Numbered from the stretch's first letter, positions 4,759 to 28,200 are shown. The stretch is DNA of 29,517 nucleotides from an uncultured Fibrobacterota bacterium (GCA_964401455.1 CAYNYI010000026.1:1-29517), one strand, 5' to 3'. The notes: generated by a model not told the origin, from the letters alone. Translations and numbers: made by a program.

Positions 4759-4766
4759 GGGGGCGG

Positions 4767-6086: not shown

Positions 6087-6093
6087 AGGATAA

Positions 6094-8821: not shown

Positions 8822-9674
8822 TTATTTTTCCAGGCCGGATTTTTTAAGGTAATGACTGAGTACCGCATTGCCCTTTTTTGCGGGAATGAGTTTCTCGCCG
8901 TCGGAATAACCTTCCTCCCGTCCGGAAAGTTCCTTAATCAGTCTGTCTCTCCAGATCTTTAACCTTTTTTCCCCGTTCGGGACAGAAGCCAGGTCTGTTT
9001 TCTCCTGCGGATCATTTTCAAGGTTAAAAAGCTGTTCATGTCCGTTTTCCGTAAACCAGATATATTTTTCTTTTCCATCGGTTAGAAACTGAATGGAATG
9101 ATGCCGGACTATATGTTCGCCGTGGATGTATTCGCGCCAATCGGTTTTCTCGCCTTTCGCGAGTCCGGCCGCGGAGATACCGTCAATTGAATCCGGTATT
9201 TCCTGACCCGCGAGTTCAAGCATGGTCGGCATAATATCACGAAGCTCAACCGGATTGTCGCAGAGCGCACCGCGCTTTATCCCGCTGTCTTTCGGGCCCT
9301 TGATTATGAGAGGAACGTTCGCGGAGCCTTCATAGGGAAGGTTTTTTCTGAAAAGATTATGGTCGCCCAGCATTTCTTGTTTTCGGAGCCAGGGCAGGTA
9401 GTCGTCGATTGCGTCGAGATTATCACGGTTTTTGGTGCGGGCAAAATGGAGGTATCCGACCCTTCCATGGTTTCCTTGTTTCAAACCGGTAAAAAGTCCG
9501 GTCCTTGCCGGAACGCGAGAAGGTGTAGCCGAATATGCGTTAGTGAATACCGTCCCTTCGGCGCAAATGCCGGTCAAGATAAGGCGTGTGGACAACAGGG
9601 TGGCCGAGGTGGCTGAGGCAGTCGCCGCGCCACTGATCGGCGAAAATAAAGACAACATTGGGTTTATTACTCAT
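8822..9674 (-). pseudogene. Sulfatase-family (alkaline-phosphatase superfamily) remnant that is frameshifted and degenerate.
   Basis: A genuine sulfatase N-terminus (MSNKPNVVFIFADQWRGDCLSHLGHPVVHTPYLDR) is encoded from the ATG at 9674..9672, and that frame hits a stop at 9542..9540. The remainder (ICAEGTVFTNAYSATPSRVPARTGLFTG, then PYEGSANVPLII, DIMPTMLELAG and LENDPQEKTDL) continues in the frame of the listed ORF 8822..9658. The formylglycine position of C/S-x-P-x-R reads Ala (A-T-P-S-R). About 150 aa of core, including the GKWHLG and DNG regions, is missing. The total is about 320 aa against a typical sulfatase of over 450. Confidence 0.65.
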
Positions 9675-14323: not shown

Positions 14324-15259
14324 TTATCGTAAAGAATCCCTATACATTTCAATGTTTTTAAAAAGCAGGGAGATATACTCCTTTTCAAGAGAAATGAGAT
14401 CTTCATCTCTGAGAGCGAGCCAGTAGCTAAGCCAGAGAAAGCGTCCGGCGAGTATTATTTCCGGAATTTTTGCTTTCATATCCTGCGGAAAAGCCAGATT
14501 GGCAGAAAAACTCTTTACGAACGGAGAAAAAAGAAATTCAGGGTTTTCAAATCCGCAGCATCCGATAAAATGCGCAGCATCGAAAAGCGGATGCTTATAT
14601 CCGCAGAACTCCCAGTCTATGACTGAGGAAATTTCATCGCCTTTCCATACTATATTCAGGGGATGAAAATCTCCGTGACAAAAAACCGCGGGAGAGGCTT
14701 TTTCGGCATCAGGAATTATTTTCAGAACAAAATCAAGTTCTGTTTTTGTTTCGCTTAGAAGCTCAGGAGAATTTGTCTGAAGCTTTTCCCGGAAACCTTT
14801 CAGAAAGGCGCTGAAAATAAATACTCTTTTGGCGGCTGCTTCCGGGGCATTTTTTAATGCGTACAGTTCGTTAAGAAACGCGGAGGAATTCCGGGCTTTT
14901 TCCAAATCATGAATGAAAGCCGGTCTTTCCGGCGGACTGCCTTCCGCGAAAGGCCTTATCTGAAAAAAGCCTTCTGAAGTTTTAAATACATGGTCTTTTT
15001 CGCCGAATTCACAGTAGGGGTGAATCCTGTCAAGCCCCATGTTCTTTAGAGACGACATTATCCGCGCGGTGTCTTCTTTATATTCAGCTTCTTCGGGTCG
15101 TATTTTTTCAAGAAGAAAGTTGCCGCCCGACTCTGAAAGGCACATGTATCTTTCTATTATACGTTCGGGGCTGCCCTGGACTTCATCCGTTTTCCGGTAA
15201 GATTTTATTTTGATTCCGGCGGCATCAAAAAGGTTTGAGAATTCTGTTTCGGAAATTAT
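14324..15259 (-). CDS. APH-family (protein-kinase-like) small-molecule phosphotransferase, a candidate sugar-1 kinase or choline kinase. The N-terminus extends upstream of the listed ATG and has a non-canonical start.
   Basis: Brenner motif FCHGDFHPLN and metal-binding VIDWEFCGY lie in the C-lobe. The Gly-loop/Lys region (QGSPERIIERY..GGNFLLEK) aligns with APH(3') GMSPAKVYKL..ENLYLK and lies partly upstream of the listed ATG at 15145. The frame is open back to a TAA at 15280..15278, with no in-frame ATG/GTG/TTG. A GGAGGAGG SD (minus strand, 15269..15262) sits 5-8 nt before ATA (15259..15257) and ATT (15256..15254). The coordinates given assume the ATA start. Confidence 0.7.
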   Translation of the reverse strand: MISETEFSNLFDAAGIKIKSYRKTDEVQGSPERIIERYMCLSESGGNFLLEKIRPEEAEYKEDTARIMSSLKNMGLDRIHPYCEFGEKDHVFKTSEGFFQIRPFAEGSPPERPAFIHDLEKARNSSAFLNELYALKNAPEAAAKRVFIFSAFLKGFREKLQTNSPELLSETKTELDFVLKIIPDAEKASPAVFCHGDFHPLNIVWKGDEISSVIDWEFCGYKHPLFDAAHFIGCCGFENPEFLFSPFVKSFSANLAFPQDMKAKIPEIILAGRFLWLSYWLALRDEDLISLEKEYISLLFKNIEMYRDSLR

Positions 15260-15984
15260 ATCCTCCTCCGCATGTATTTATGGATTACTATACCGGCGCC
15301 TATCCCTGAATAATTTGGCATGATGTTCTCTCTTTTTCCTCCGATATCTCTGTTGTCCGGAATATAGGCTTTTTGAAAGGCGAAAGCCTTAAAGGACATA
15401 AAAGGAAGCGGGCGAAAATGGAGTTCACCCCTTGCCTCAAGGCCGGGGCGCGGGCTGTGATAGTACTTATCCCGGAATTTGAACATATGATAGCCGGCAA
15501 TGAGTCCGAAGCCGGAACTAAAAAACGCTTTTGACGATCGGGTCATTTTTTTCGGGGCATTAAAAAGTTTAAGGCCGATTATGTTCCAATCGATATAAAA
15601 TTCTGAAGCGCCGTGTTCCTCGTTGGATGAGAAAACAAATGTGTTGGGTACAAGCATATGTCCGATATAAATCTCGTCGCCGGCAAAGCCCCGGTACTTT
15701 TTGGGGATGCGGTGTTTTACATCGGATTTCCTGAGAAGGGCTTTACCGTCGATATCAATTACGGTGCTTTTCGAAAATGTTTTAAAAAGCAGGTTTTCTC
15801 CGAATAAACTGTTGATTGCCATACCGCCGGCAAGGTGAATATCGAGCCGGACCGGTATTTCTCCTGAGGGATTTTTCTTTACACTTCGAATATCCTTTCG
15901 GCTGCCCCTGTGTCGTCTTTCCGAAGACAAAACCGGAAACCCGGCAGATAAGCATAAGCATATAGTCATAACCGTTTTTATCAT
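15256..15984 (-). CDS. Probable body of a sugar-1-phosphate nucleotidylyltransferase (NTP_transferase), separated from its N-terminus by a frameshift in an A7 run. The alternative reading is an unrelated hypothetical protein.
   Basis: The 242-aa ORF's frame is open upstream only to 16006. Restoring one A in the A7 run (T7 on + strand at 15999-16005) joins ...DSYNNCGIKK to TESISMIKTVMTI..., which resembles RmlA AGIREILIIS. HRGSRKDIRSVKKNPSGEIPV resembles MurU [21 protein letters not shown], and HLAGGMAINSLF resembles ETGGGIFKAL. Its stop (15258..15256) overlaps the kinase start region. Confidence 0.45.
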   Translation of the reverse strand: MIKTVMTICLCLSAGFPVLSSERRHRGSRKDIRSVKKNPSGEIPVRLDIHLAGGMAINSLFGENLLFKTFSKSTVIDIDGKALLRKSDVKHRIPKKYRGFAGDEIYIGHMLVPNTFVFSSNEEHGASEFYIDWNIIGLKLFNAPKKMTRSSKAFFSSGFGLIAGYHMFKFRDKYYHSPRPGLEARGELHFRPLPFMSFKAFAFQKAYIPDNRDIGGKRENIMPNYSGIGAGIVIHKYMRRRI

Positions 15985-16154
15985 AGAGATGCTTTCTGTT
16001 TTTTTATACCGCAGTTATTATAAGAATCCATTGCGCGGACTATGGATGGTTTTCCGTCTATTTCGAAACAAACCTTATGCAGGTCGGCGGAACCCATTCG
16101 GGTTCCTTTGCCTCCGGCAAGGATAATGCTGTATTCGAGGCTTTTGGGTTTCAT
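15981..16154 (-). CDS. N-terminal fragment of a sugar-1-phosphate nucleotidylyltransferase (G-loop) that ends prematurely after about 57 aa.
   Basis: MKPKSLEYSIILAGGKGTRMGSADLHKVCFEIDGKPSIVRAM matches the NTP_transferase N-terminus (MurU MKAMILAAGKGERMRPLT..PKPLVPVAGQPLIE). The ATG at 16154 is preferred over the track's 16220 because nucleotidylyltransferases begin 5-10 aa before the G-loop. The stop falls immediately after an A7 homopolymer. Confidence 0.55.
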   Translation of the reverse strand: MKPKSLEYSIILAGGKGTRMGSADLHKVCFEIDGKPSIVRAMDSYNNCGIKKQKASL

Positions 16155-16232
16155 TGATATAAGATAATTTATATCCGTTGCCTGCAACAAAAAGTTCAAG
16201 GCTCCTTTTGGTGCAGGCACAATAAACAGCTC

Positions 16233-16261
16233 TTGACAAAGTCATGAAAAAGAGCTATATT
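16233..16261 (+). promoter_or_regulatory. Near-perfect sigma70-type promoter for the GntR-led operon: -35 TTGACA at 16233-16238, 17-bp spacer, -10 TATATT at 16256-16261. GT-N-AC-type half-sites (GTCAT) flank it.
   Basis: Read directly. The -35 is consensus, spacing is exactly 17 bp and the -10 is 5/6. Downstream, AAAGGA SD lies 6 nt before the TTG start at 16303. GTCATgaaaa…TGTCATagTTGAC repeats overlap the promoter. Confidence 0.5.
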
Positions 16262-16302
16262 GTCATAGTTGACTATTACAATGTGTAACCAAAGGACTTG
16301 GT

Positions 16303-16707
16303 TTGGCATTTAAATTTTCTCTGAACAGCTCTTCCGGAGTTCCTTATTACCGGCAGATAGTTAATCAGGTAACTTACGGAGTGGTTAACAGCATCTTTGA
16401 GCCGGGCGAGCGTCTTCCGACCGTGCGGCAACTGGCGGTGGACCTTCAGGTAAACCTGAATACCGTTTCAAAAGCCTATACAGAACTCGAATTAAAAGGA
16501 ATAGTCAATACCCAGCAGGGGACCGGGACATTTATTTCAGAGAATAAGGTGCGTATCGATCCTAAAACGAAAGAAAAAGGGCTCCGCCAGCTATGTCTGA
16601 ATTTTTTGAATGAAACCGCGGCGCTCGGTATAAAAGCAGAAGACTCACTTAAAGAATTAAAGAAAATAGAATCCGAAAGAAAAAGAAACCCGCACAAAGG
16701 AAATTGA
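16303..16707 (+). CDS. GntR-family transcriptional regulator of the short YtrA-like subfamily.
   Basis: 134-aa ORF with a TTG start. The winged HTH LPTVRQLAVDLQVNLNTVSKAYTELELKGIVNTQQGTGTFIS is the canonical GntR N-terminal domain. A short C-terminal helix follows. The stop overlaps the next gene. Confidence 0.85.
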   Translation: MAFKFSLNSSSGVPYYRQIVNQVTYGVVNSIFEPGERLPTVRQLAVDLQVNLNTVSKAYTELELKGIVNTQQGTGTFISENKVRIDPKTKEKGLRQLCLNFLNETAALGIKAEDSLKELKKIESERKRNPHKGN

Positions 16708-16709
16708 AA

Positions 16710-17675
16710 ATGGCTGAAAAAATACGGGAATTCAAAGAAAGAAGAGAATTTAATCCGGTTACCTGGAATATTCGGAAGGCATTGTTCTCGCTGAAGCGTT
16801 ATTCACTCAATGTGATGTTTTTCCTCCTTGCCGGGGCCTTAATTTACTTTCTAAGAAACCGTCTTGTATTAAACAGATCTGCGGAAACGGCGCTGTATAT
16901 TGTTTCCGGTTTATTTGTTATTTTGGGGTTTTCCGTAAGGACCGCTTTCGAATGGGAGAGGGTTCCCCTTTTGCGCCTGGGAAAATTCAGAAAAGCGAGT
17001 GGTCCGGGAATCTTTTTTCTAATACCTTTTGTTGATATCCCTTGCGGTTATGTTGACTGCCGCATAACCGTTACAGACTTCAGCGCCGAGAAAGTCTTAA
17101 CCAAAGACGCTGTTCCGATATATGTGGATGCGATAATTTTCTGGATGATCTGGGACGCTTCAAAGGCCAGGCTTGAAGTGGAGAATTATAAAAACGCCGT
17201 TCCTTTGAGCGCAAAAACGGCATTGCGGGACATCATAGGAAAAACCACCCTGGCGGAATTGCTTACGGGACGGGATGAAATCGGATCAGAGCTCCAGAAG
17301 ATACTCGATGACAAAACAAATCCCTGGGGAATAACCTCTCTTTCTGTTGAAATAAAAGATATCGTTATTCCCGAAGAACTTGAAGACGCTATCAGTAAAG
17401 AGGCCCAGGCGGAAAGAGAAAAAAACGCGAGAATAATTCTCGGGTCGGCCGAGGTCGAGCTTTCTGAGAAGTATTCTGAGGCATCCGAAAAATACAAGGG
17501 AAATGACGAAGCGCTTACTCTTCGTTCATTAAATCTGCTTCTTGAGACGCTGAAAAGCAAAGGGTCCATGATTCTGGTTCCTTCGGAGACGCCGCATGTG
17601 ATGAATAAAGCGCTTTCGGCCGCATTGGCCCGAAAGGCAGGTAATGATGCTGCAACCCCGCAAGCCGATATATAA
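16710..17675 (+). CDS. SPFH/band-7 (stomatin/prohibitin-like) membrane protein.
   Basis: Two N-terminal transmembrane helices, then an SPFH core (ERVPLLRLGKFRKASGPGIFFLIPFVD…VTDFSAEKVLTKDAVPIYVDAIIFW…LRDIIGKTTLAELLTGRDEIGSELQKILDDKTNPWGI…VEIKDIVIPEELEDAISKEAQAEREKNARI) and a coiled-coil tail. The ATG at 16710 has an AAGGAAA SD. The track's TTG at 16704 is less likely. Confidence 0.85.
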   Translation: MAEKIREFKERREFNPVTWNIRKALFSLKRYSLNVMFFLLAGALIYFLRNRLVLNRSAETALYIVSGLFVILGFSVRTAFEWERVPLLRLGKFRKASGPGIFFLIPFVDIPCGYVDCRITVTDFSAEKVLTKDAVPIYVDAIIFWMIWDASKARLEVENYKNAVPLSAKTALRDIIGKTTLAELLTGRDEIGSELQKILDDKTNPWGITSLSVEIKDIVIPEELEDAISKEAQAEREKNARIILGSAEVELSEKYSEASEKYKGNDEALTLRSLNLLLETLKSKGSMILVPSETPHVMNKALSAALARKAGNDAATPQADI

Positions 17676-17698
17676 ATTTTTAAAACGGAGGCCTTAAA

Positions 17699-20593
17699 AT
17701 GAGGCAGAAAATTTTCAGAAAAATCGGAGACCTTGTGACTTCCCGCCCGGGAGGGATACTTGTTTTCAGTTTTATTTTAACTATTCTTATGGTTCTGGCC
17801 GCAGCGCGCATCAGTTTCAAGACTCAGATAGCCGACATGATGCCGGAGGAACTGCCGCAGGTCAATGAATTGATGGAAATTATAGAGGACTACCAGAGTG
17901 AGTCCACGGTGATGATCACTGTAGAGAGCGAAAAGAAAGATATTGAAGCGATGAAAAAGTGCGCCGATGAGCTTTCCGGAAAACTGAAGAAAATCCGGAG
18001 GATAAAACCTGCGAATCCGGAGAAACTTTCGCTGATTCAGAAGATCAATTCAGCCAAGGGTGTTTTCCCGCTGGCCGGAGTAGAATATGATACTGTAGAT
18101 CTTGTTAAACGTGTTGATTATAAAATCGACAATGACTTCATTGAGTCGCATGCCATGATGATTCAGAAAACAAAAGATCTTCGTAATATGGTCTCGATGT
18201 ATAAAAGCGTGGCTCTTCCCGAGCTTGTGGAAAATATAAACAACAGTTTCGAGAAAGAATTCATTGACGACTCGGAAAACATGACAACTCTCGACGGCGA
18301 AAACCAGGCCGTCCAGGGCCTTGAGAGTATGCGCAAATTCATGGCAGGGATAAAGGAGTATATAGAGGAATCGGATTCCGCCGGAGCGGCACGTTCGGTT
18401 GAGAACCTTTTGACAGGCTCGGAATATATGCTCTCTCCTGATAATAAAATGCTTATGATGGTACTTCGCCCCGCTGTAAGTTTCAATCATTTTGAAGATA
18501 TGATGTATCTTGGATACCGTATTGATGATACTCTTTCGACGGTAATGAAAAAATACCCTGATCTTGAAATCGGGCGGACCGGGGCGATGATGCTTCAGAT
18601 AGACGAGAATAAGGCTCTCGAGAAAGACTTCAGTATTCCGAGTGTTATCGCGCTTATTCTGATACTGATTATACTGATAGGTTCATTCCGGACGTGGAAA
18701 AACCCGTTTTATTCTGTTTTTACACTGATTATTTCGATAATTTGGGTCACAGGGCTTCTCGGCATAGTTCTGCAATACCTTAATATGATGTCCGCGGGTT
18801 TCGGTATAGTTCTTATCGGCCTCGGAATAGACTTCGGAATACATTTTATTTCAGGATTCAAGGACGGCCGCGAGCAGGGGAAAAGTGCAGTCGATTCCAT
18901 ATATTATATGTATAACCGCGTTGGCAGCGGAGTGATTACGGGCGGAATGACAACGGCGATAGTTTTTCTAAGCCTCCCTCTTACCCGTTTCGAGGCATAT
19001 TCACAGATGGGAATAGCGATGGGGCTTGGAATAATCACGACCCTTTTTGCCATGCTGATTTTACTTCCGGCCCTTATAATGTGGGACAACAAAGGCTACA
19101 GCCTTGCCGGCAACTTTTTTCGGAAAGCCGGGCTTGGCTTTATTCCTTCTGTCTGGAATACTGTTGATAAAACTGTCGGTAAAATAATACCGAAGAAACT
19201 GTTGCGTTCATTATCTGCTCCGCTTCAGTTCGGATTTCTGGACTCAATTGGTTTTGCCATAAAAAAAATGCCCGTAGCCGTTCTAATACTATTGATTTCC
19301 GCAGTTATTACGGTTTTATCTATAATCGGAGGCTTTAACCTGGATTTCGAATATGATATGATGGAGCTTCAGCCCAAGGGCACTTTGAGCGCTGTTACTC
19401 AGGATAAAATCATTGATAAGTTTGAAATCTCACCGGATCAGGCAATGATAAAAGCCCCGGGAATAGATCGGTGCAGAGAAATGGTTGAAAAATATAAAAA
19501 AATCGGAAACCGGACAGGTCTTATCGGAAGAGTGGACGCAATCACCGAGTTTCTGCCGGAAGAAGAAGTTCAGCGTGAGAACGCGGCGTTTATAAAAGAT
19601 TTTAAGCTGAAGTTCAAAAAAGTGGACCCTGTTCCGGTGCTGGACGATGAAGATTCAGAGAAACTTGTCACCGAATTGAGGAGGTTTCATAAGAATATTG
19701 TAGAAATCGGGGAACTCTCTGTGCTGAGTATGGGGCAGAAAAATAAAATTATAAGAAAATGCGACCAGATAGCAGGTAAAAAGGATGAAGATTCTTTTGT
19801 GCTGCAGCTTGCCTCGTTGATTGAAAAATACCCGCAGTCTTCCAGGCAGGTTAACGGCTATCAGCGAATCGCCGGGCCTGTAATGAAGGAAAAAGTCCTT
19901 GAAATGACTTCTACAGATATTGTAACTCTCGAAAAACTCCCGGAGACTATAAAAGAAAGATATGTAAACCCTAACAATGACGAGTTATTAATAACTGTGT
20001 ATCCGAAGTCATATATATGGAATGAAAAAAATCTGCACAGGTTTAACAAGATGACAGCAAGAGTTTCCGAAAGAATCACGGGGATGCCGGTTATTATGCA
20101 GCTTATGATGGACCTGATGGGAAAAAAAGGAAAACAGGCGGTTTTAATAGGGGCTTTGGCAATTGCTTTGTTCCTGCTTTTTGACTTCCGCTCAATGAGA
20201 TACACCATCCTTGCCGCCGTACCGCTCGCGGCGGGTTCGGCCTGGATGTTCGGGCTTATGTATATCTTCGGTGTAAAGCTGAGCATGATGAATTTTATCG
20301 CGCTCCCGCTTATTATAGGTATCGGGATAGACGATGGAGTGCATATGCTGCACCGATACAGGATTGAGGGGCCGGGTTCCGTTCCGATCGTCCTTAAATA
20401 TACGGGAAGGGCGACTCTTTTGACTTCGCTTACAACTATGATAGGTTTCGGTTCGATGGGACTGGCTTCCCATAAAGGTATTGCGGTACTCGGGCAGACA
20501 TTGTTTTTCGGGGTCGGTTCCTGCTTTTTGAGCTCGGCTTTCATGCTGCCGGCAATCCTTACTATTATGGAAAAATTTCAGAAAAAAAATTAA
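17699..20593 (+). CDS. MMPL/RND-superfamily exporter (COG1033, HpnN-like) with two 6-TM bundles and two large periplasmic domains.
   Basis: 964-aa ORF with a duplicated architecture of N-terminal TM, periplasmic domain and TM cluster. The TM clusters span about residues 310-460 (LILIILIGSFRTW…GIDFGIHFISGF…) and 800-960 (…LPLIIGIGIDDGVHMLHRYR…), typical of MMPL/SSD-type RND proteins. A GGAGG SD lies 7 nt upstream. Confidence 0.8.
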   Translation: MRQKIFRKIGDLVTSRPGGILVFSFILTILMVLAAARISFKTQIADMMPEELPQVNELMEIIEDYQSESTVMITVESEKKDIEAMKKCADELSGKLKKIRRIKPANPEKLSLIQKINSAKGVFPLAGVEYDTVDLVKRVDYKIDNDFIESHAMMIQKTKDLRNMVSMYKSVALPELVENINNSFEKEFIDDSENMTTLDGENQAVQGLESMRKFMAGIKEYIEESDSAGAARSVENLLTGSEYMLSPDNKMLMMVLRPAVSFNHFEDMMYLGYRIDDTLSTVMKKYPDLEIGRTGAMMLQIDENKALEKDFSIPSVIALILILIILIGSFRTWKNPFYSVFTLIISIIWVTGLLGIVLQYLNMMSAGFGIVLIGLGIDFGIHFISGFKDGREQGKSAVDSIYYMYNRVGSGVITGGMTTAIVFLSLPLTRFEAYSQMGIAMGLGIITTLFAMLILLPALIMWDNKGYSLAGNFFRKAGLGFIPSVWNTVDKTVGKIIPKKLLRSLSAPLQFGFLDSIGFAIKKMPVAVLILLISAVITVLSIIGGFNLDFEYDMMELQPKGTLSAVTQDKIIDKFEISPDQAMIKAPGIDRCREMVEKYKKIGNRTGLIGRVDAITEFLPEEEVQRENAAFIKDFKLKFKKVDPVPVLDDEDSEKLVTELRRFHKNIVEIGELSVLSMGQKNKIIRKCDQIAGKKDEDSFVLQLASLIEKYPQSSRQVNGYQRIAGPVMKEKVLEMTSTDIVTLEKLPETIKERYVNPNNDELLITVYPKSYIWNEKNLHRFNKMTARVSERITGMPVIMQLMMDLMGKKGKQAVLIGALAIALFLLFDFRSMRYTILAAVPLAAGSAWMFGLMYIFGVKLSMMNFIALPLIIGIGIDDGVHMLHRYRIEGPGSVPIVLKYTGRATLLTSLTTMIGFGSMGLASHKGIAVLGQTLFFGVGSCFLSSAFMLPAILTIMEKFQKKN

Positions 20594-20612
20594 TCAATAT
20601 AAGGAGGAAACC

Positions 20613-21350
20613 ATGATAAAAACATTTATGATTGTACTGGGTATTTTAGCGGGGCCGGTTTTTTCCATAACAGCCGATGAAATACTCGACAAAATGGAGA
20701 AAAATGAAAACGCGCAAACCTCTAAGAGCACTGTAAAGCAGACGGTATATAATACAGACGGCAGTAAAAATGTTTCAAAGCTTCTAAACTATTCTTTTAA
20801 TGAAGGCGAAAAGGCGCTCATAGAATATATATCTCCCGCGCGAATAGAGGGAATGAAAATACTCACGCTTAACGACGGCGACGATATATGGTTTTATTCT
20901 CCCCGGACCGCCCGTGTAAGAAAAATAGCCAGCCATCAGAAGAACCAGTCGGTAAACGGATCCGACTTTTCCTATGAGGATTTGTCAACAGGAGACAGAA
21001 GAGAAGATTATGACGCTTCTCTGGACGGTGAAAAAGAAATAAGGGATACAGACTGCTACAAAGTTATTATGAAGGCAAAGAATGAGGATGAAACCTACAG
21101 CAAGATTGTGTTTTATGTCGATAAGGAAAAATTTATAGGAATAGAGGGACATTTTCATGATGAATTCGGAGAATTATGGAAAAAACTGATAATGAAAGAC
21201 ATTGAAAAGATCGGAAAATACTGGACGCCGGAATACATCGAGATGAAAAATGTTTTAAAGGGCTCCCGGACTGTTATGGAAATGGAAAATATTGAATATG
21301 ATATTGATCTTGATGAATCCATGTTTTCCACAAGGTTTTTGAAAAGATAA
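20613..21350 (+). CDS. Periplasmic LolA-like protein of the 'outer-membrane lipoprotein-sorting protein' family. Its length fits the ~250-aa LolA-like (PF17131) family.
   Basis: 245-aa ORF with an SPI signal peptide (MIKTFMIVLGILAGPVFSITADE) and no lipobox Cys. The beta-rich sequence with GSDFSYEDL and YKVIMKAKNEDETYSKIVFYVDKEKFIGIEG segments matches my recollection of the LolA-like family often found beside COG1033 exporters. An AAGGAGG SD is present. Confidence 0.55.
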   Translation: MIKTFMIVLGILAGPVFSITADEILDKMEKNENAQTSKSTVKQTVYNTDGSKNVSKLLNYSFNEGEKALIEYISPARIEGMKILTLNDGDDIWFYSPRTARVRKIASHQKNQSVNGSDFSYEDLSTGDRREDYDASLDGEKEIRDTDCYKVIMKAKNEDETYSKIVFYVDKEKFIGIEGHFHDEFGELWKKLIMKDIEKIGKYWTPEYIEMKNVLKGSRTVMEMENIEYDIDLDESMFSTRFLKR

Positions 21351-21374
21351 CACTTTATTCAGCGGAGTATAAAA

Positions 21375-22631
21375 ATGAGATATGTATTAGTAATGATGTT
21401 ACTTGCCGTATCGGTTTTTCCGGAAGGCATAAAGCTTGGAGGATATCTTGAAAACAGGACTGCCGTAACTTTTTCTGAAAAAGAAAGCATAAGCAATGCG
21501 TCTTTGCTAAGGCTCGAGTCTTCAAAAGATTTCGGGACTAAGGGCGCTTTCGATGCTCATCTTTCTGTATATTCCAAAAAAGAACCGGTGGACATTTTTT
21601 CAAATATTCGTCCTGAAAGCGCGATGGAAAAAGCGGTGCTTGGTTTGTATGGCCCCTTGCTTGAAAGTCTGCCTCCGGAGACCCTCCTGCCGGCGGAAAT
21701 TTTAATCCCGGAAGAGGCCGGAGAAATGATGGAAGTTTTCATTACCTACGGTCCGTACTCTGACTTTATAAATACCGACGGAATAGAACTCGACAGGGCC
21801 GTTTTGAAATTGTTTTTCAATAAATTCGATTTGTATTTCGGTAAGCAGCTTATCGCATGGGGAGCGGGATACGCTTTTAATCCGACTGATGTCTGGAATA
21901 TGAAAAACCCCATGGATCCGGAAGCCCCGAAAAAGGGAACAAACGCACTCCGCGCCGAGGTGCCTCTGGGTGCCGCCGCGGGGCTTTCTCTTGTCGCTTC
22001 AACGGGGAGTGATTTCAGCCATTCGAGCGGAGGGGCGCGTCTGAAAGGTTTTTTTAAAGGCTTTGATCTTTCAATGAGCGCTATGAAAGTCCACACTCCG
22101 GACCGCGAGTTGGCAGGACTTCCGAAGAAAATAATGGCCGGAGCCGATATGGCCGGGCAGGTTTTTGATGTCGGTGTCTGGGCCGAAGGGGCCTGGAATA
22201 ATCCTGTTTACGATGAATACACAAAAACGGACTCCGCCTACTTCCAGGCCGACGCGGGGCTTGACTATACCTTTGAAAACGGTCTTTATGTTCTCGGAGA
22301 GTATTTTTACAACGGCCTCGGTAAAAATGATCCTGATAAATATTCCGGTAACGATCTTATAAATATGTTTTCAGGTGAGATGCCCGGTTTCGGGCGCAAT
22401 TACGCAATGGCGGGTCTCAGGAGAGAGTTTTTTATAAAGTATAATTTTTCTGTTTTCAGCCTGACAAATATTTCAGACGGGTCTTTTATGCTTTTGCCGA
22501 TGGTTGAATACTCTTTCTCTGATAATATTTCCGTAGAACTTCGAGGGCAGGCCCCGATCGGGGACGGGAAAAAAAGCGAATACGGCTCTTATTACGGGAG
22601 CCTGGGTATGGGGGTCAAGGGGTATTTTTAA
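21375..22631 (+). CDS. Outer-membrane beta-barrel protein with a signal peptide and C-terminal aromatic residue; a candidate outer-membrane partner of the exporter.
   Basis: 418-aa ORF. Signal peptide MRYVLVMMLLAVSVF. Alternating amphipathic beta-strand pattern. C-terminal …LGMGVKGYF ends in Phe, the OMP beta-signal. Confidence 0.55.
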   Translation: MRYVLVMMLLAVSVFPEGIKLGGYLENRTAVTFSEKESISNASLLRLESSKDFGTKGAFDAHLSVYSKKEPVDIFSNIRPESAMEKAVLGLYGPLLESLPPETLLPAEILIPEEAGEMMEVFITYGPYSDFINTDGIELDRAVLKLFFNKFDLYFGKQLIAWGAGYAFNPTDVWNMKNPMDPEAPKKGTNALRAEVPLGAAAGLSLVASTGSDFSHSSGGARLKGFFKGFDLSMSAMKVHTPDRELAGLPKKIMAGADMAGQVFDVGVWAEGAWNNPVYDEYTKTDSAYFQADAGLDYTFENGLYVLGEYFYNGLGKNDPDKYSGNDLINMFSGEMPGFGRNYAMAGLRREFFIKYNFSVFSLTNISDGSFMLLPMVEYSFSDNISVELRGQAPIGDGKKSEYGSYYGSLGMGVKGYF

Positions 22632-22746: not shown

Positions 22747-22774
22747 TTGACGCTCTTGACAAAATTAGTATATT
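22747..22774 (+). promoter_or_regulatory. Candidate sigma70-type promoter for the hybrid histidine kinase: -35 TTGACG at 22747-22752, 16-bp spacer, -10 TATATT at 22769-22774. The alternative is TTGACA at 22756-22761 with 17 bp to TAGATT at 22779-22784.
   Basis: Read directly. The region contains the 12-mer GCTCTTGACAAA (22752-22763), identical to the one in the GntR promoter (16229-16240). Confidence 0.35.
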
Positions 22775-22813
22775 AACTTAGATTAGTATAGCGGAGTCCA
22801 CTATTTCAGGAGC

Positions 22814-25264
22814 GTGTCTTTTTTGATAAAAATTACAGAGAAGGAATTTCTCCGCCTGAAAAGGCTGAATGATATTTCAGCCGCATTACGCCGGGTAAAC
22901 AGGTGTATTAACAGGGCTTCGGAAAAAAACGAACTTCTTGAAAATATCTGCTCAGCTTTTGCAAAAGAGGAGTTTTGCTTCGGGGCCTGGGCCGCATTTC
23001 TTAATTCTGACAAAGATATTGAATTGTCTTTCGGATCTGTTCCGGGGATGGCAAGGCAGGAATCCGCAAGCATTCTCGAAAATAATCTTATGCCGCGCTG
23101 TTTCAGTCTTAACCTTGAGATCGCTGAAAAACTTCTGATAATAAACGGAAAAGAAAGCTGTTCCTCCTGCCTGGCGCTCGGCCCGGATACAGACCGGTCT
23201 GTTATATCAATGAAAATAGAATCCCGTGATACCACCGCAGGTATTCTCTGTATATGTGTGGAAAAAACTATTTCGGATGATCCGGAAATTCTTGAACAAT
23301 TTTCTGAAACGGCCGGTGAATCAGGCTATGCCTTGTCTGCGCTGTGTGAAAAAGAAAAACGAATACAAACAGAGAATAAACTTAAAGAAAGCAGAGACCT
23401 CTTTCAAAAAATGCTCTCCGTTGTGCCGGATATGATATCCATTCATGACCGTGATATGAATATTCGCTACAGCAACTGGAGAGGGTTCGGCGCCATTCCC
23501 TCAGAAAAAAGGAACATCGGAGCCAAATGCTACAATGCCTACAGAGACAGAGATTCTGTCTGCCCCGACTGCAAAGCCCGGATGGTACTTGAGACAGGGG
23601 AACCATTTCATGAGGAGATAGCCCTTCCCGAAGGAATGTGGGTTGATCTTAGAATTCTTCCCATTAAAAATGAAAAAGGCAAGACCAATCTTTTTGTTGA
23701 ATGGGTCAAGGATATTTCCGAACAGAAAAGAACAGAGAAGGCCCTTCTGGAAAATGAGTCGCGATTCAGGGGCATATTCGAAAACTCAATATCAGGTATT
23801 GCTCTCCACAGCATAATAAAAGATGAAAACGGGCAGGCTGTGGATTATAAAATTCTCGATGTTAACCCGGCATTCGAGAAAATAACCGGAGTACAAAAGG
23901 AAAAAGCCAAAAGAAAAAGGGCTTCTGAACTATACGGTACCGATGACACTCCTTTTTTAAAGATATATTCAGAAGTTACCAAGACAGGCTCCTCTAAAGA
24001 ATTTGAGACAAGATTTGAACCAATGAATAAGACTTTTTCCATTTCCGCCTTTTCTCTCGGTAATGAAAGATTCGCGACAATTTTTGAAGACATTACCGAA
24101 AGAAAAGAAATAGAGCAAAAAATAAGACAGATGGAAAAGATGGATGCTGTCGGGCAGCTGGCGGGCGGAATCGCTCATGATTTCAATAATCAGCTTTCCG
24201 GAGTAATGGGATACGGCAGTATGCTTGTTGAAAAACTTAAAGAGCCGACTCTCCGGCGTTATGCCGAGAATATGCTTACCGGGGCAAAGCGTTCGGCTGA
24301 CCTTACGGAGCAGCTTCTGGCATTTTCACGTAAAGGTCAGTTCCAGCTTGTGAGGGTGAATGTTCATAAAATAATCGATGAAGTAATCGGAATTCTTCAA
24401 CACAGCATTGACAAGAAGATCGATGTGAAAAGAATTTTCGAAGCCGCAACCCCGATTGTGAATGGTGACCCTTCTCAGCTTCAAAATGCGCTTTTAAATC
24501 TTGCCTTAAACGCCAGAGACGCCTTGCCCGAAGGCGGTGAGATTATTTTCGCCACAAATTATACAGAACTCGACTCTGACTATTGTTTCAGGCAGCCTTA
24601 TGAAGTTGATCCAGGTAAATATATCAGGATTTCAGTTACAGATAACGGGACAGGAATGGATGATGAGACGCGCAAACATATTTTTGAGCCTTTTTTCACG
24701 ACTAAAGAGCCGGGTCGCGGGACCGGTATGGGGCTTGCGGCGGTTTACGGCACCGTGAAGAATCATGGCGGATCTGTAAATGTTTACAGTGAGCCGGGGC
24801 ACGGCACGACATTTCATTTGTATATACCCGCGGCTTCAGGCGTAGAGACTGAAGAAGATTATAAAACGGATCCTGATTTTTACGGTTTTAACGAGGGCGA
24901 TTTTGTGCTTGGCGCCGATGATGAGGAAATTTTTCGTGAACTGGCAAGGGATATCCTGACCGAGTCCGGCTTCAAGGTGCATACGGTCCCGGATGGTCAG
25001 GCCGCCATCGATTATTACAGGAAGAATAAAGAGCAGATTGATGTTCTTATTCTTGATATGGTTATGCCGAATAAAGACGGCAAAGAAACTTTCGATGCCG
25101 TTTTAAAAATTAATCCGCAGGTAAAAGTCCTTTTGGCATCGGGTTACAGCATCAACGGCGAGGCGCAGGTTCTTCTGGAAAAAGGGGTGAAGGACTTTCT
25201 TCAGAAACCGTTTACCAAAAATGAACTGATTGGAAAACTCGGCAGGTTGTTAAAAAGAGACTAA
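22814..25264 (+). CDS. Cytoplasmic hybrid sensor histidine kinase: GAF-like domain, two PAS domains, HisKA, HATPase and a C-terminal receiver.
   Basis: 816 aa. H-box [20 protein letters not shown]1 and G2 boxes ([32 protein letters not shown]). Receiver with ADDEE…ILDMVMP…K. No transmembrane segments. The start is GTG 22814 or, with better SD spacing, TTG 22823. Confidence 0.9.
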
Positions 25265-25277
25265 GAGTTTTCATAAT

Positions 25278-28200
25278 TTATTCATCCATGATATTTCTTA
25301 TTATTTCTGAAAAATCTTTTCTGTTAAGCGGTTTTAAATAAAAACCCTTGATTCCTTCTTTTCGGGCTTTTTCTTCGTTGACGCTTCGGCTGTAGCCGGT
25401 GCAGAGAATAATCGGCGTTCCGGGACGTATTTTTAATATTTCCCGTGACATTTCCAAACCGGTCATGTTCGGCATTGTCTGATCTGTTATTACGAGGTCA
25501 TATTCAGCGGGGTTTTCTCTGAAGGACTCCAGCGCTTTTTCGCTGTTGTTGAAGCTTTTAACTTTATAGCCCAGTTCCGTAAGCATTGATGAGACCATAT
25601 CGGTCAGTATTTCCTCATCGTCAACAAAGAGTATGCTTTCTGTTCCGCCGATAAGCTCGCATTTGGGTTCTTTTGCTATATCCAGAGAAGCGTTTGTTTT
25701 AGGCAGAAAGACTTTAAAAACAGTTCCCGACTCATCGCCGCTTTCCACAGTTATATTTCCCTTGTGGCTTTGGATGATTCCAAAGACTACTGCCAGCCCC
25801 ATACCGGTGCCTTCACCGGGTTCCCGGGTAGTGAAGAAGGGTTCAAATATCCTCGGCATCAGTTCTTCCGGAATACCGTTCCCGTTATCTTTTACGGTGA
25901 GTACGGAATAAAAGCCCGGCTTTGAAACCCCCGCGCGTCCTTCCCATTCCCGGTCAAAATATTCATCCGCGAAGCCTATTTCAAGAAGTCCTTTTTCATT
26001 CATGGCGCTCGAAGCGTTTGTGCAGAGATTCATCAGTATCTCATGAATTTTTGTGGGGTCGGCCAAAACCGGTTTGTCTTCCCTGGCGAGATTTGTTTTG
26101 ATTTCAATAGAAGAAGGCAGGCTTGCCTTAAGCAGGTGCACCGCCTCTTTTATTATGGGTCTTATGTATATTGGACTGAGCTCTTCGGGGCCCTGACGGC
26201 TGAAAAGCAGGATCTGGTTTACAAGCTCTTTGGCCCTGTTGCCCGATTCTTTAATACGAAGTATGTTTTTTTCCATACGGCTCCCCGGAGAAACCATGCT
26301 GAGAGATATTTCGGAAAACCCGATTATACCGGCCAGTATATTATTGAAATCATGGGCTATTCCGCCGGCGAGGTGCCCTATCGCCTCCATTTTCTCGGAC
26401 TGGCGGAGCTGTTTTTCAAGCTGGATTTCTCTTGAAATATCCCGTTTTACGGCAACAAAATTTACAATTTTTCCGGCTGGAGAACGCACCGGAGAGATAA
26501 CGCATTCTTCGGTATAAAAAGACCCGTCTTTCTTTCTGTTGACCATTCGGCCGGTCCATGTATTACCGGAAAGGATTGTTTCCCAAAGCTGTTTATAAAA
26601 AAAGCGGTCCTGTTCTCCGCTTTTCAATATCCGCGGATTCTTACCGATGGCTTCTGTCTCTTTGTATCCGGTAGTATTCTCGAAGGCGGGATTTACATAT
26701 TGGATTTTTCCGTCTGTGTCGGTGATAACAATGGTCCCCGCCGCCTGGTTTATGGCGGAAGTAAGCCGAATACTTTCTCCTTCGGCTTTTTTACGGGTTG
26801 AGATATCGAAAGCCATCGCCAATATAACCTGTTTTCCGTCGAGAAAAATTCCGCATAGATGGATTTCGGCAGGATAGCTGGAGCCGTCTTTTCTAATATG
26901 TTTTCCCTCAAGGACTTCAGACCTGCCGACTCTCAGGTAGTTCCAAAGCTTTTCACGGTCTTTTCTATCGAGGCTTTCAGGGTCTAAATCATAGACAGAC
27001 ATTTCTGAGAGTTCGGTTTTTGTATAGCCGGTATTTTTGGAAGCGGCGGTATTCACAAGCACAAATTTTCCGTCAAGGTCATGCGCAAATACAGCCACAG
27101 GTAAATCTTCTATGATTGTTTTAAAGCGGGTTTCGCTTTCTTTAAGCTGTTTGAGCGTTTTCCTTCTTTCTGTAATATCTCTCATTGTTCCCGAGATTTT
27201 GAGGGTCTTGTTCTCTTTGGAGATTACTACCGAGGCTGTTATTGAACAGTATCTGGATTCCCCGGATTTGTCTTTAAGATTTACTTCATAGTCTGTCACT
27301 TTACCTTCCAGAGAAAAGGCCTTGAGAAGATTCGCTCTCTCTTCCGGGTCCCGGTATATTTTTTCAAGAGAAGCCCCGAGCAGTTCTTCTCTTTTATATT
27401 CAGAAATACTTTCAATAGAGGGGCTGATTTCCAGTATTCTTCCGTCCAGAGAGGCTTCATAATATACATCCTGAATATTCTCAAAAATTTGACGGTATTT
27501 TGCCTCCGTCTTTTTCAGCATTTCTTCAGCCTTCTTTGCCTCGGAGACATCCATATGCGTGCCGCACATTCTTAAGGGATTCCCGTTTTCATCTCTCTCT
27601 ATGATTTTGCCTTTATCCAGTATCCATACCCAAGACCCCGATTTATGCCTGAGACGATGCTCGGAAGAGTAGATTTCAATTCGTCCCTCAAGATGCTGCT
27701 GCAGAAGGTCCTTGACACGGGCTTCATCATCGGGGTGCAGAAGGTTTTCCCATGAGCTTATATCAGACTTTATCTCCTCAAGAGAATAACCCTGCATTTC
27801 AGCCCATCTTTCGCTGAAAACAACCCTTCCGGAAGTAATATCCCAGTCCCATGTACCAAGTTCGCCCGCCCTCAGGGCCAAATCCTTTCTTTCCTCTGAT
27901 TCTCTAAGTTCCTCGCGTATTCTATATTCTTCTGTTACATCCCTGAAAACCAGAACAACACCTTTTATTGATCCCGGTTCGTCTTTTATTGGGGCCGCGG
28001 AATCGGCAATCTGGAATTTTTCTCCGCTTTTGGAAATGAGTACGGTATGGTTTGCAAGACCTATGATTTTCTTTGTTTCCAGCACTTTCTTAACCGGATC
28101 TTCAGAAGGCAGCCCGGTTTTCGCGTTTATTATCCGGAATACTTCTGTGAGAGGCTTGCCTGAGGCTTCGGCCACGGACCATCCTGTCAGTTTTTGTGCG

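Follow-up and report, generated by a model that had tools for sequence, protein, structure and literature searches.

A compact Fibrobacterota operon with an RND pump, a LolA-like protein and a predicted outer-membrane β-barrel, probably for moving a greasy molecule across the cell envelope

[quoted passage not shown] It lies within a stretch of DNA of 29,517 nucleotides (GCA_964401455.1 CAYNYI010000026.1:1-29517; hereafter the window) and is a minimal variant of the widespread and recognized class of DUF1302/DUF1329/RND systems, whose cargo remains undefined, just as a preliminary description of the window had stated in noting that such neighborhoods recur without a characterized substrate. 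On balance, we lean towards the view that the operon is autorepressed and that its products form a route by which a hydrophobic or amphiphilic molecule crosses the cell envelope. The same description had read the five products as an envelope-spanning export system comprising a YtrA-type GntR regulator, an SPFH protein, an MMPL/RND pump, a LolA-like protein and an outer-membrane barrel; our family and fold assignments support both this list of parts and the export reading.

The operon is confirmed as a genuine array of five ORFs in the Fibrobacterota genome, tightly packed on the plus strand from 16303 to 22631 behind one promoter (Table 1), in keeping with the earlier claim of a single operon with a consensus promoter. 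The intergenic gaps are, in order, −4, 23, 19 and 24 nt, with the start of the SPFH gene overlapping the GntR stop codon, and are followed by 182 nt to the next gene. Promoter-like sites as such are in no excess in the region (15 as against 12.9 in shuffles); hence, it is not the site count but the conservation across orthologous upstream regions that validates the promoter: among eight of these, no variation is seen in the −35 box or in four of the six −10 positions (TAT-T). Strong Shine-Dalgarno sites, which had been claimed for every gene, precede only the pump (ACGGAGG) and LolA-like (AAGGAGGA) genes, those of the GntR, SPFH and barrel genes being moderate (AAAGGA, AAAGGAAA and GCGGAG). 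A search 3′ of the barrel gene found no convincing intrinsic terminator.

Table 1. Features of the operon and its control region; positions are those of the window.
Feature	Position	Strand	Basis or remark
Sigma-70-type promoter, TTGACA-17 nt-TATATT	16233..16261	+	11/12 consensus positions; conserved upstream of orthologues
24-bp palindromic operator ATTGTCATAGTTGACTATTACAAT (putative)	16259..16282	.	Overlaps last 3 nt of −10 box and likely transcription start
GntR-family regulator, YtrA subfamily, 134 aa	16303..16707	+	ORF and profile matches
Stomatin-type SPFH/Band 7 protein, 323 aa	16704..17675	+	ORF; probable true start ATG 16710
HAE3/MMPL-type RND inner-membrane pump, 964 aa	17699..20593	+	ORF and profile matches
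Secreted LolA-like protein (PF17131), 245 aa	20613..21350	+	ORF and profile matches
Outer-membrane β-barrel, 18 strands (model), 418 aa	21375..22631	+	Predicted compact divergent DUF1302 superfamily member

The first gene codes for a GntR-type winged helix (PF00392 at 7e-14, residues 16-78 of 134 aa) with only a short C-terminal extension and a palindrome at its own promoter, as is typical of the YtrA subfamily. Its best NCBIfam matches, each below its own cutoff, are Rv1152 (9e-20) and PmtR (2e-16), and the nearest solved proteins are short YtrA-type regulators of 121-134 aa, namely Lmo0741 (4r1h; 7e-20), followed by Lmo2241 and Lin1836. Like the YtrA-subfamily repressors of Bacillus subtilis (YtrA), Staphylococcus aureus (PmtR) and Mycobacterium tuberculosis (Rv1152), it lacks a large effector domain, heads the operon that it presumably represses and is accompanied by a palindromic operator at the promoter. 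Known regulators of this type mostly control ABC exporters, whereas the target here is an RND-based system with a stomatin. The 24-bp palindrome is the presumed binding site of this regulator. Its pattern, TGTNNTNNTNNNCNANNACAAT, matches on both strands at this one place in the window, with 0.16 matches expected by chance, and each of seven distinct related loci (L001, L003, L004, L006, L010, L011 and L016) has a single copy in the corresponding position ahead of the GntR gene. An eighth locus (L009), from which both the GntR and SPFH genes are deleted, retains this promoter and operator, which there immediately precede the pump gene, such that the palindrome is conserved in eight loci. Such repressor control, to which the preliminary description gave no weight, favors an inducible system over lipid export as a housekeeping function.

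The product of the second gene (PF01145 at 3e-32) is of the stomatin type: its best solved relatives are stomatin (9wmj and others; 4e-38), PH stomatin (1e-35) and QmcA (8e-28), with HflK/HflC matching only at about 1e-9, and two hydrophobic segments (37-55 and 60-78) behind a very basic N-terminus furnish an N-terminal membrane anchor. NfeD, the usual partner of SPFH proteins, is absent from the ORFs of the window. A functional link between the SPFH protein and the pump is suggested only by their co-transcription in one clade.

The pump matches PF03176 in two stretches (6e-32; 111.3 bits against a cutoff of 20.5). Among the NCBIfam models, all below cutoff, it is closest to HpnN (TIGR03480; 3e-93), BstA (3e-64) and HAE3 (TIGR00921; 4e-59), and among solved structures to HpnN (6wu0 at 7.5e-27, and 5khn), then MmpL4/5 at 1e-12 and weaker; a single ‘cation/multidrug efflux pump’ match (7e-4) and a sole HAE1 match (OqxB; 0.005, 14.7 bits) complete the picture. 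It thus groups, as had been proposed, with the MMPL/HpnN-type transporters and not with the HAE1 or HME pumps. A hydropathy scan reveals an RND-like layout, with ten membrane segments on either side of two loops, each about 270 aa long (approximately 39-310 and 545-814). Two aspartate motifs, GIDFGIH (376) and GIDDGVH (876), fall respectively in the segments 366-384 and 859-877, which by RND topology would be TM4 and TM10, and these are the expected places for a proton relay. A classical HAE1 tripartite pump can be rejected: neither an HlyD-family membrane-fusion protein nor a TolC-type factor is encoded in the operon or elsewhere in the window.

Two lipid transporters offer themselves for comparison. 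The BstABC system of Methylococcus handles a lipid by means of an RND pump, a carrier in the periplasm and a protein associated with the outer membrane. The operon follows the same logic of parts, and the BstA model is among its pump's best matches; however, its carrier and outer-membrane proteins come from other families (LolA-like and DUF1302-like), no sterol genes occur in the window, and at 217.4 bits the pump stays far below the cutoff of 1400 for the BstA sterol transporter. HpnN (Burkholderia multivorans and Rhodopseudomonas palustris) is the pump's best match among curated models and solved structures alike; both are HAE3 proteins with an RND-like layout and aspartate motifs within membrane segments. 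Nevertheless, the pump falls far short of the HpnN equivalog cutoffs (313.5 bits against 751.85 for TIGR03480; 186 against 1100 for NF052374), and hopanoid synthesis genes are likewise absent from the window ORFs. HpnN works without dedicated periplasmic or outer-membrane partners (PMC6394551).

The fourth product covers almost the entire profile of PF17131 (1.6e-56; 191.4 bits against 30; positions 3-184 of 184), a family also named TP_0789-like, and additionally scores above cutoff with DUF1329 (6e-10; 39.3 bits against 23.1). Its family profile aligns at full length with four solved LolA-superfamily structures, 9TP6 (1.8e-48), 3BK5 (7e-44), 4Z48 (1.6e-43) and 3BUU (8.5e-28), which bears out the LolA-like fold proposed for this 245-aa protein; the assignment is based on this homology, the single-sequence AlphaFold2 model being too low in confidence for use (pLDDT 36). 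The N-terminus (MIKTFMIVLGILAGPVFS/ITADE) is a signal peptide of the signal-peptidase-I type, with no Cys and no lipobox. As a canonical LolA it fails by a wide measure (TIGR00547, 18.1 bits against 112; LolA1_Flavo, 24.1 against 100), and it shares with its solved homologues the status of a secreted LolA-fold protein other than the canonical lipoprotein chaperone. Flexirubin loci pair LolA2/LolB2 with a COG1033-type exporter. There, too, LolA-fold proteins are dedicated to a specific lipidic product localized to the outer membrane (PMC11885536); those loci, however, carry biosynthetic genes and a LolB-like lipoprotein, whereas the operon has neither, with a barrel in place of LolB. The closest solved homologue, 9TP6, is LolA3 of Porphyromonas gingivalis, which lacks the LolA arginine and LolB leucine features and binds LolB at most very weakly (PMC13103446), and deletion of lolA3 in Flavobacterium johnsoniae causes no gliding or T9SS phenotype (PMC11885536). 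Unlike the situation in the operon, the papers describing these proteins discuss no pump or barrel partner. Of all the readings considered here, we give the least credence to alternative lipoprotein sorting, with the LolA-like protein carrying lipoproteins to the outer membrane and the RND pump replacing LolCDE: the fold and the Pfam description of PF17131 as ‘outer membrane lipoprotein-sorting protein’ speak for it, and the canonical-model scores, the LolA3 data and the pairing with a barrel rather than a LolB-type lipoprotein against it.

The terminal 418-aa protein has no Pfam match, with none to PF06980 even at E <= 1, and just two of the 39 members of its family (A2), both distant, match the latter profile. 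Yet, profile–profile comparison (hhalign) aligns the family with the DUF1302 branch (A3), 24 of whose 25 members match PF06980, at 99.8% probability (E 2e-27 over 253 columns). When modeled, the protein forms an 18-strand barrel whose top structural neighbors are Occ porins and AlgE; DUF1302 is likewise an 18-strand barrel with the same top neighbors (PMC13499233). Together, alignment and model indicate that the protein, already suspected of being a β-barrel, is a compact, divergent member of the DUF1302 superfamily. Its family comprises 8288 representative clusters (E <= 0.001, 50%-identity library), and because it escapes Pfam annotation, such systems are currently under-counted.

The evolutionary core of the operon emerges from a comparison of 58 related loci with the pump, LolA-like and barrel trio. 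In all loci among L001-L028 with enough upstream sequence, the barrel gene directly follows a LolA-like gene, and a gene for the pump is close by. Most often the three are contiguous, L010 being a rearranged case; the trio recurs in Cloacimonadota, Ignavibacteria (in the order LolA-like, barrel, pump) and Spirochaetota, showing that the three genes travel together across several phyla. The GntR and SPFH genes, which had been counted among the parts of the system, are not core: they accompany the trio only in the closest, Chitinivibrionia-type, clade, and are elsewhere replaced by TetR, as in another clade where the trio lies behind such a regulator, or by nothing, as in Delongbacteria, where it has no local regulator. 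In two MAGs from different studies (L003 and L011), the pump and LolA-like genes form a single ORF of 1228 aa. These retain the internal SD, ATG and signal peptide; thus, they may yield separate proteins, and tethering is not proved. Some genomes possess additional LolA-like and barrel pairs, which suggests cargo-specific paralogues. In a Fibrobacteria MAG (L062), the trio is directly upstream of genes for an acyl-CoA synthetase, ETF, a hydroxyacyl-CoA dehydrogenase and a thiolase. L018 and L065 have extra genes between those of the pump and the carrier; none of these is related to the COG4447 BNR family. No lipid-biosynthesis genes are conserved adjoining the trio, and the genes immediately upstream of the operon show no synteny among relatives.

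The nearest experimentally studied systems are AmeABCD of Castellaniella defragrans, which combines DUF1302, DUF1329, COG4447 and HAE3 components and whose deletion lowers monoterpene tolerance and raises Nile Red influx (PMC6394551), and the cassettes in which DUF1302, DUF1329, BNR and RND genes are cofit (bioRxiv 10.1101/072470), as seen in Shewanella, Kangiella and Pseudomonas. A DUF1302–DUF1329 pair is predicted to interact by AlphaFold-Multimer (ipTM 0.84; PMC13499233), and DUF1302 and DUF1329 mutants lose fitness on Tween 20 and butyl stearate. With these systems, the operon shares an HAE3 pump, a LolA-superfamily periplasmic protein that also matches DUF1329, and an 18-strand barrel whose family aligns to the DUF1302 branch, without an MFP or TolC; their function is linked to hydrophobic compounds. 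It differs in several respects: no COG4447 BNR or Ycf48-like periplasmic β-propeller is encoded among window ORFs of at least 110 aa; the carrier (245 aa, PF17131) is half the size of AmeB (about 450 aa); the barrel has 418 aa as against 605 in AmeA and is invisible to PF06980; the pump gene precedes those of its partners; and a YtrA-type GntR and a co-transcribed stomatin are found instead of LuxR or AraC. Going by layout, possible relatives also occur in a cultured gammaproteobacterium, Thalassolituus oleivorans MIL-1: TOL_3187, a fusion of MMPL and LolA-like domains induced 42-fold on n-C28, and the adjoining TOL_3188, a domainless predicted porin expressed only on n-C28 (PMC6304351). The arrangement is equally compact, and the fusion recalls those of L003 and L011; in the window, however, the two genes are separate, and T. 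oleivorans is an obligate hydrocarbon degrader responding to an alkane.

Briefly, we envisage the following mechanism for an autorepressed export route. The YtrA-type regulator would sit on the operator beside the −10 box, keeping the operon off until an envelope or cargo signal arrives. The pump might then use the proton gradient to draw cargo from the outer leaflet of the inner membrane, as do HpnN and MmpL3, and pass it into the hydrophobic cavity of the LolA-like protein, which may stay at or near the pump. The latter could dock on or plug the barrel, which would insert the cargo into the outer membrane or release it outside, while the stomatin-type protein, on the cytoplasmic face, might gather the pump into a patch of membrane or stabilize it there. 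That the three products of the trio touch one another is an inference. Given the repressor control, the exchange of local regulators between lineages and the behavior of the relatives, an inducible handler of very hydrophobic compounds or lipids is likelier than a housekeeping exporter of glycolipids; the evidence from relatives consists of monoterpene tolerance, n-C28 induction in the system of the same layout, and fitness on fatty esters. Against this, a constitutive role in the envelope would likewise be compatible with the trio of Delongbacteria, which has no regulator beside it. Furthermore, RND pumps export, yet growth on hydrophobic substrates requires or induces the relatives in Pseudomonas, Thalassolituus and Castellaniella, which counts against a settled direction or purpose.

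A possible, if less probable, alternative is housekeeping envelope biogenesis, with the trio delivering an endogenous non-glycolipid membrane lipid or cell-wall component to the outer membrane as an RND-powered counterpart of Lpt or Lol, along the lines of what Price et al. suggested for the DUF1302/DUF1329/BNR/RND cluster. The closest curated pump models are indeed lipid transporters, the trio and its large barrel family are widespread across diderm phyla, Delongbacteria can dispense with a local regulator, and the pleiotropic phenotypes in Shewanella and P. stutzeri led to the proposal of ‘export of a cell wall component’ (bioRxiv 10.1101/072470). However, a conserved repressor operator in the operon's own clade and TetR in another are more typical of inducible pumps; moreover, the additional LolA-like and barrel pairs, the responses of the studied relatives to exogenous hydrophobic substrates and the lack of conserved lipid-biosynthesis genes beside the trio all speak against it. 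We consider unlikely, and advance only speculatively, a broader version in which, across many non-proteobacterial diderms, the compact trio would be a general proton-driven pathway taking an endogenous lipid to the outer membrane, not a detoxification pump but a missing export route for phospholipids or lipids; the LolA-like protein would dock in the barrel or plug it, much like LptE in LptD, with a stomatin microdomain and release by an envelope-stress-sensing YtrA repressor as the Chitinivibrionia elaboration.

Still more doubtful is the converse, that the barrel and the LolA-like carrier import hydrophobic nutrients such as long-chain alkanes, fatty esters or terpenes through the outer membrane and the periplasm, while the RND protein would help with their entry into membranes or their removal. 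The n-C28 induction of TOL_3187 and TOL_3188, the fitness losses on Tween 20 and butyl stearate, and the genes that lie downstream of the trio in L062 would all suit such a role; no catabolic genes for hydrophobic substrates, however, adjoin the operon in the window. To our knowledge, wherever the direction of an RND or MMPL protein is known, it is export from the inner membrane. The increased dye accumulation upon AmeABCD deletion also fits efflux (PMC6394551).

A glycolipid cargo, as the preliminary description had hypothesized, made by the GT4/DUF6938/GT28(MGDG-synthase)/GH20 cluster (255-8771) and exported to the outer membrane or surface, appears very improbable and finds no support in the limited synteny data. 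Both clusters do lie within one 29.5-kb window, the pump family moves lipids, going by its HpnN- and BstA-like scores, and a LolA-fold carrier could hold acyl chains. However, about 7.5 kb separate them, with eight unrelated genes on both strands (coding for a sulfatase fragment, VIT, a T9SS-tail protein, GH4, AraC, choline kinase and others); synteny is lacking immediately upstream of the operon, and the trio occurs in many lineages with quite different neighbors. In none of the 58 trio loci, whose flanks may not span 8 kb, was a homologue of the five glycolipid-cluster proteins (GT28, GT4, DUF6938, GH20) found. Conversely, three contigs with the conserved DUF6938–GT28 pair or GT28 alone have no MMPL, LolA-like or Band_7 gene in the flanks covered (<=10 kb to either side). 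The link between the operon and the neighboring glycolipid operon, attractive as it is, lacks support and can thereby be dropped.

How hydrophobic molecules and bulk lipids cross the periplasm is only partly understood, and the DUF1302/DUF1329/HAE3 class is among the most widespread uncharacterized candidates for such a crossing. The present locus shows this class in its minimal three-part form; the new elements are the conserved 24-bp operator, the conservation of the trio across phyla and the single-frame fusions of pump and LolA-like genes. The conserved repressor operator, the co-transcribed stomatin and the natural pump–carrier fusions provide experimental handles and point to a possible function for PF17131 proteins, among them P. 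gingivalis LolA3 and, going by the name of the Pfam family, Treponema pallidum TP_0789.

The five ORFs proposed as one operon in the preliminary description, namely those for a GntR (YtrA-type) regulator, an SPFH protein, an HAE3/MMPL-type RND pump, a LolA-like protein and an outer-membrane barrel, are indeed organized as such: they are separated by gaps of -4, 23, 19 and 24 nt, with 182 nt to the next gene, and are headed by a single conserved promoter and operator (see the table). Shine-Dalgarno (SD) sequences are strong at the pump (ACGGAGG) and LolA-like (AAGGAGGA) genes and moderate at the other three. No convincing terminator was found after the barrel gene, and an Rfam search of the window returned zero RNA families. 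The promoter scan on its own proves little, with 15 promoter-like sites in the region versus 12.9 in shuffles; the promoter is accepted since seven related loci conserve it: when their orthologous upstream regions are aligned with the window, the -35 box is invariant, the -10 box is conserved and a conserved palindrome lies directly 3' of the latter. The pattern of invariant positions in this operator is unique in the window (0.16 expected), matches both strands and occurs once per related locus at a constant position. A Fibrobacteraceae MAG (L009) keeps the promoter, operator and SD and has no GntR and SPFH genes; its promoter-operator element is ~70 nt upstream of the pump ATG. As the same element there stands directly before the pump gene, the pump operon is the target of control, and L009, as a natural deletion variant, may express it constitutively. 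The layout, in which a regulator encoded first in the operon has its putative repressor-binding site at the -10 box and transcription start, is that of classic autorepression.

Features of the window and of related loci (window coordinates unless a locus is named)
Feature	Position	Strand	Remark
Promoter TTGACA-17-TATATT	16233-16261	+	11/12 consensus positions
Palindromic operator ATTGTCATAGTTGACTATTACAAT	16259-16282		Conserved in aligned orthologous upstream regions
Five-gene operon	16229-22631	+	ORFs of 134, 323, 964, 245, 418 aa
GT4/DUF6938/GT28/GH20 cluster	255-8771
DUF6938-GT28 pair	4767-7260
DUF6938-GT28 pair, L067	8557-11134
DUF6938-GT28 pair, L068	8662-11134
Sulfatase-like ORF	8822-9658	-	278 aa
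Protein with weak T9SS C-terminal sorting domain	10424-11887		487 aa
APH/choline-kinase gene	14324-15145	-
Protein with signal peptide	15256-15984	-	242 aa
NTP_transf_3 fragment	15981-16220	-	79 aa, N-terminal
LicC/LicA-type pair (apparent)	14324-16220	-
Promoter-like sites of 816-aa kinase	22747-22784
Two hybrid histidine kinases	22814-29384	+ and -	816 aa (+), 1368 aa (-)
Promoter, operator and SD, L009	4487-4640
Second LolA-like/barrel pair, L002	4482-6098
Second LolA-like/barrel pair, L010	6697-8671
Pump-LolA-like fusion, L003	6287-9973		1228 aa
Pump-LolA-like fusion, L011	6200-9913		1228 aa
Trio with beta-oxidation genes, L062	5686-21293

The regulator consists of a GntR winged helix and a short tail; among solved structures it is closest to YtrA-type proteins, 121-134 aa long (best Lmo0741, 7e-20), and its top NCBIfam matches, Rv1152 and PmtR, are both under cutoff. 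The SPFH protein is stomatin-type (stomatin 4e-38 and QmcA 8e-28 vs HflK/C ~1e-9). Its N-terminus is very basic and there are two hydrophobic segments, which points to a hairpin anchor that would leave the SPFH domain cytoplasmic; an NfeD partner is absent. The pump matches MMPL in Pfam, and hydropathy gives ten membrane segments around two ~270-aa loops, which is the RND layout; the segments at 366-384 and 859-877, carrying the motifs GIDFGIH and GIDDGVH, we take to be TM4 and TM10, as befits a proton-motive-type HAE3 pump. The best curated models (HpnN 3e-93, BstA 3e-64, HAE3 4e-59) and the best solved relatives (HpnN, then MmpL4/5) place it, as had been anticipated, in the HpnN/MmpL group rather than with HAE1 or HME. 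All three model scores are under their cutoffs, and membership in HpnN or BstA proper was rejected on that account; an HAE1 tripartite pump is ruled out by score cutoffs or missing partners.

The 245-aa protein likewise has, by homology, the predicted LolA-like fold: it matches PF17131 at 1.6e-56 and DUF1329 at 6e-10, and its family profile aligns over the full length with four solved LolA-superfamily structures, among which P. gingivalis LolA3 scores best (9TP6, 1.8e-48). The assignment rests on this homology because the structure model from the single sequence, at pLDDT 36, could not be used. The protein carries a signal peptide of the signal-peptidase-I type, lacks a lipobox and is thus taken to be secreted; it is not a canonical LolA, the models for which score far under their cutoffs. 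For the barrel, the search yielded one distant match carrying PF06980 (DUF1302), and a search from that match recovered a large family of ~450-aa proteins named DUF1302 by their sources, 24 of 25 sampled members of which match PF06980. Profile-profile comparison of the close family of the window's barrel with this DUF1302 family gave 99.8% probability (E 2e-27), and the two have in common the motif GRQxIAWG...NPTD, which in the barrel model closes strand 5 and enters a long loop preceding strand 6 that would line the lumen. By these profile relationships, the window's barrel is a hidden DUF1302. A 2026 study describes DUF1302 as an 18-strand barrel with Occ porins and AlgE as PDB neighbors, the same as those of the window's barrel, and as still lacking an experimental structure; for a DUF1302-DUF1329 pair, the same study gives an AlphaFold-Multimer ipTM of 0.84 (PMC13499233). 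The profile of the window's barrel family retrieves 8288 representative clusters at E ≤ 0.001 (1080 at E ≤ 1e-30); thus, the family is common but unannotated.

We compared the gene set by tblastn of the window's proteins against 58 genome loci. In the subset L001-L028, labeled mainly as Fibrobacterota, Raymondbacteria, Delongbacteria and Cloacimonadota, the LolA-like gene is immediately upstream of the barrel gene, with the pump gene nearby, in every locus whose upstream sequence is long enough, and this trio is mostly contiguous (rearranged in L010). The Spirochaetota have the window's order, and the Ignavibacteria LolA-like, barrel, pump. GntR and SPFH precede the trio solely in the closest clade (L001, L003, L004, L006, L010, L011, L016), with SPFH at the contig edge in L002 and L007; a TetR takes their place in L062, a Fibrobacteria MAG, and no local regulator was found by the trio in Delongbacteria. 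Just downstream of the L062 trio, on the same strand, are beta-oxidation genes: acyl-CoA synthetase, ETF alpha and beta, Fe-S oxidoreductase, hydroxyacyl-CoA dehydrogenase/enoyl-CoA hydratase and thiolase. In L002 and L010 a second, divergent LolA-like-barrel pair (31-32% and 24-26% identity) just upstream of the main pair suggests carrier-barrel paralogues with one common pump. Occasionally one ORF spans both the pump and the LolA-like gene, as in two Chitinispirillaceae MAGs from different studies (L003, L011). Since the junction retains an internal SD, ATG and signal peptide, the fusion might be processed or both forms might be produced; it speaks for two functionally coupled proteins in matched stoichiometry, and does not prove tethering. 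Insertions between the pump and carrier genes in L018 and L065 encode a PNGase-F-like T9SS protein and an unassigned protein, respectively, and no BNR/COG4447 fourth component was found among them. The L018 insert has a weaker Por_Secre_tail match (17 bits, E 0.0075) than the window's 487-aa protein (26.7 bits vs a cutoff of 27). Taken together, the parts and their conserved adjacency support the proposed envelope-spanning export system at the level of architecture.

The same is not true of the suggested glycolipid cargo, which tests from both sides left unsupported. The glycosyltransferase cluster is real, and two of its genes, the one for DUF6938 and the MGDG-synthase/GT28 gene directly downstream of it, form a pair that is conserved on unrelated contigs; DUF6938 may act with the glycolipid synthase as a partner not yet characterised. 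The distance from this cluster to the operon is ~7.5 kb, with eight unrelated genes that lie on both strands and are not conserved in the trio loci. Homologues of the cluster's proteins were absent from the 58 trio loci, whose flanks are possibly too short for an exact test, and no MMPL, LolA-like or Band_7 genes occur within ≤10 kb on each side of the GT28 orthologues on three contigs, a test of limited power because these are not close relatives. Nothing in these data positively favours the link. Elsewhere in the window, the 278-aa sulfatase-like ORF matches just a short N-terminal part of the Sulfatase domain plus SGSH_C and is probably truncated or a pseudogene. The 242-aa protein, without a Pfam match, adjoins the APH/choline-kinase gene and overlaps by 4 nt the fragment of an NTP_transf_3 (LicC/MobA-like) nucleotidyltransferase; this stretch looks like a LicC/LicA-type choline-activation pair with the transferase truncated or interrupted. 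Downstream are two large convergent PAS-rich hybrid histidine kinases, the 816-aa one being the next gene after the operon and having promoter-like sites of its own; no link between the two and the operon was found. The operon shows no GC or skew anomaly that would point to a recent island (window GC ~43%, range 0.42-0.46 throughout), and the closest relatives of the window's proteins are from Chitinivibrionales, Chitinispirillaceae and Fibrobacter MAGs.

Literature searches for LolA-like with HAE3, or LolA-like with RND and lipid transport, returned nothing, and for TP0789 just a proteome list. Informative relatives nevertheless exist. In Castellaniella defragrans, the monoterpene-induced AmeABCD combines an HAE3 pump with a DUF1302 barrel, a LolA-like protein of the DUF1329 family and a COG4447 protein; when it is deleted, monoterpenes are tolerated less well and Nile Red influx is greater (PMC6394551). 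For P. putida, genes of the DUF1302/DUF1329 class are important on Tween 20 and on butyl stearate (bioRxiv 10.1101/2020.07.04.188060). In Thalassolituus oleivorans, TOL_3187, an MMPL-LolA-like fusion similar to those of L003 and L011, is 42-fold up on n-C28, and the adjoining TOL_3188, a domainless predicted porin, is made only on n-C28 (PMC6304351); the compact layout is the same as the window's, a likeness in layout and not an established homology of TOL_3188 to the barrel. As for PF17131 proteins, P. gingivalis LolA3 lacks key LolA and LolB residues and shows very weak LolB binding at most (PMC13103446), and F. johnsoniae lolA3 mutants have no gliding or T9SS defect (PMC11885536). All four families are cofit in Shewanella, Kangiella and Pseudomonas, and a role in exporting a cell-wall component was proposed (bioRxiv 10.1101/072470).

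The window's system thus belongs, as a compact variant, to the DUF1302/DUF1329/HAE3 class, which is recognised but uncharacterised. It differs in the lack of the BNR component, a Pfam-invisible barrel and, in its own clade, the addition of the YtrA operator-repressor and the stomatin. Briefly, we advance the following plausible mechanism. The YtrA repressor would keep the operon off until a signal arrives. HpnN and MmpL3 extract their cargo from the periplasmic leaflet, and by analogy the pump might pull a hydrophobic or amphiphilic cargo from it and hand it to the cavity of the LolA-like protein. This carrier might then dock on or plug the barrel, as in the predicted DUF1302-DUF1329 complex and LptDE, whereupon the barrel would free the cargo into the outer membrane or past it, and the stomatin might organise or protect the pump in the inner membrane. 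A housekeeping route for envelope lipids, such as the cofitness-based proposal of cell-wall export could suggest, is a serious rival, if a rather unlikely one. The control by a local repressor, the different regulators used in different lineages and the findings on the relatives lead us to favour an inducible system that handles lipids or other very hydrophobic compounds.
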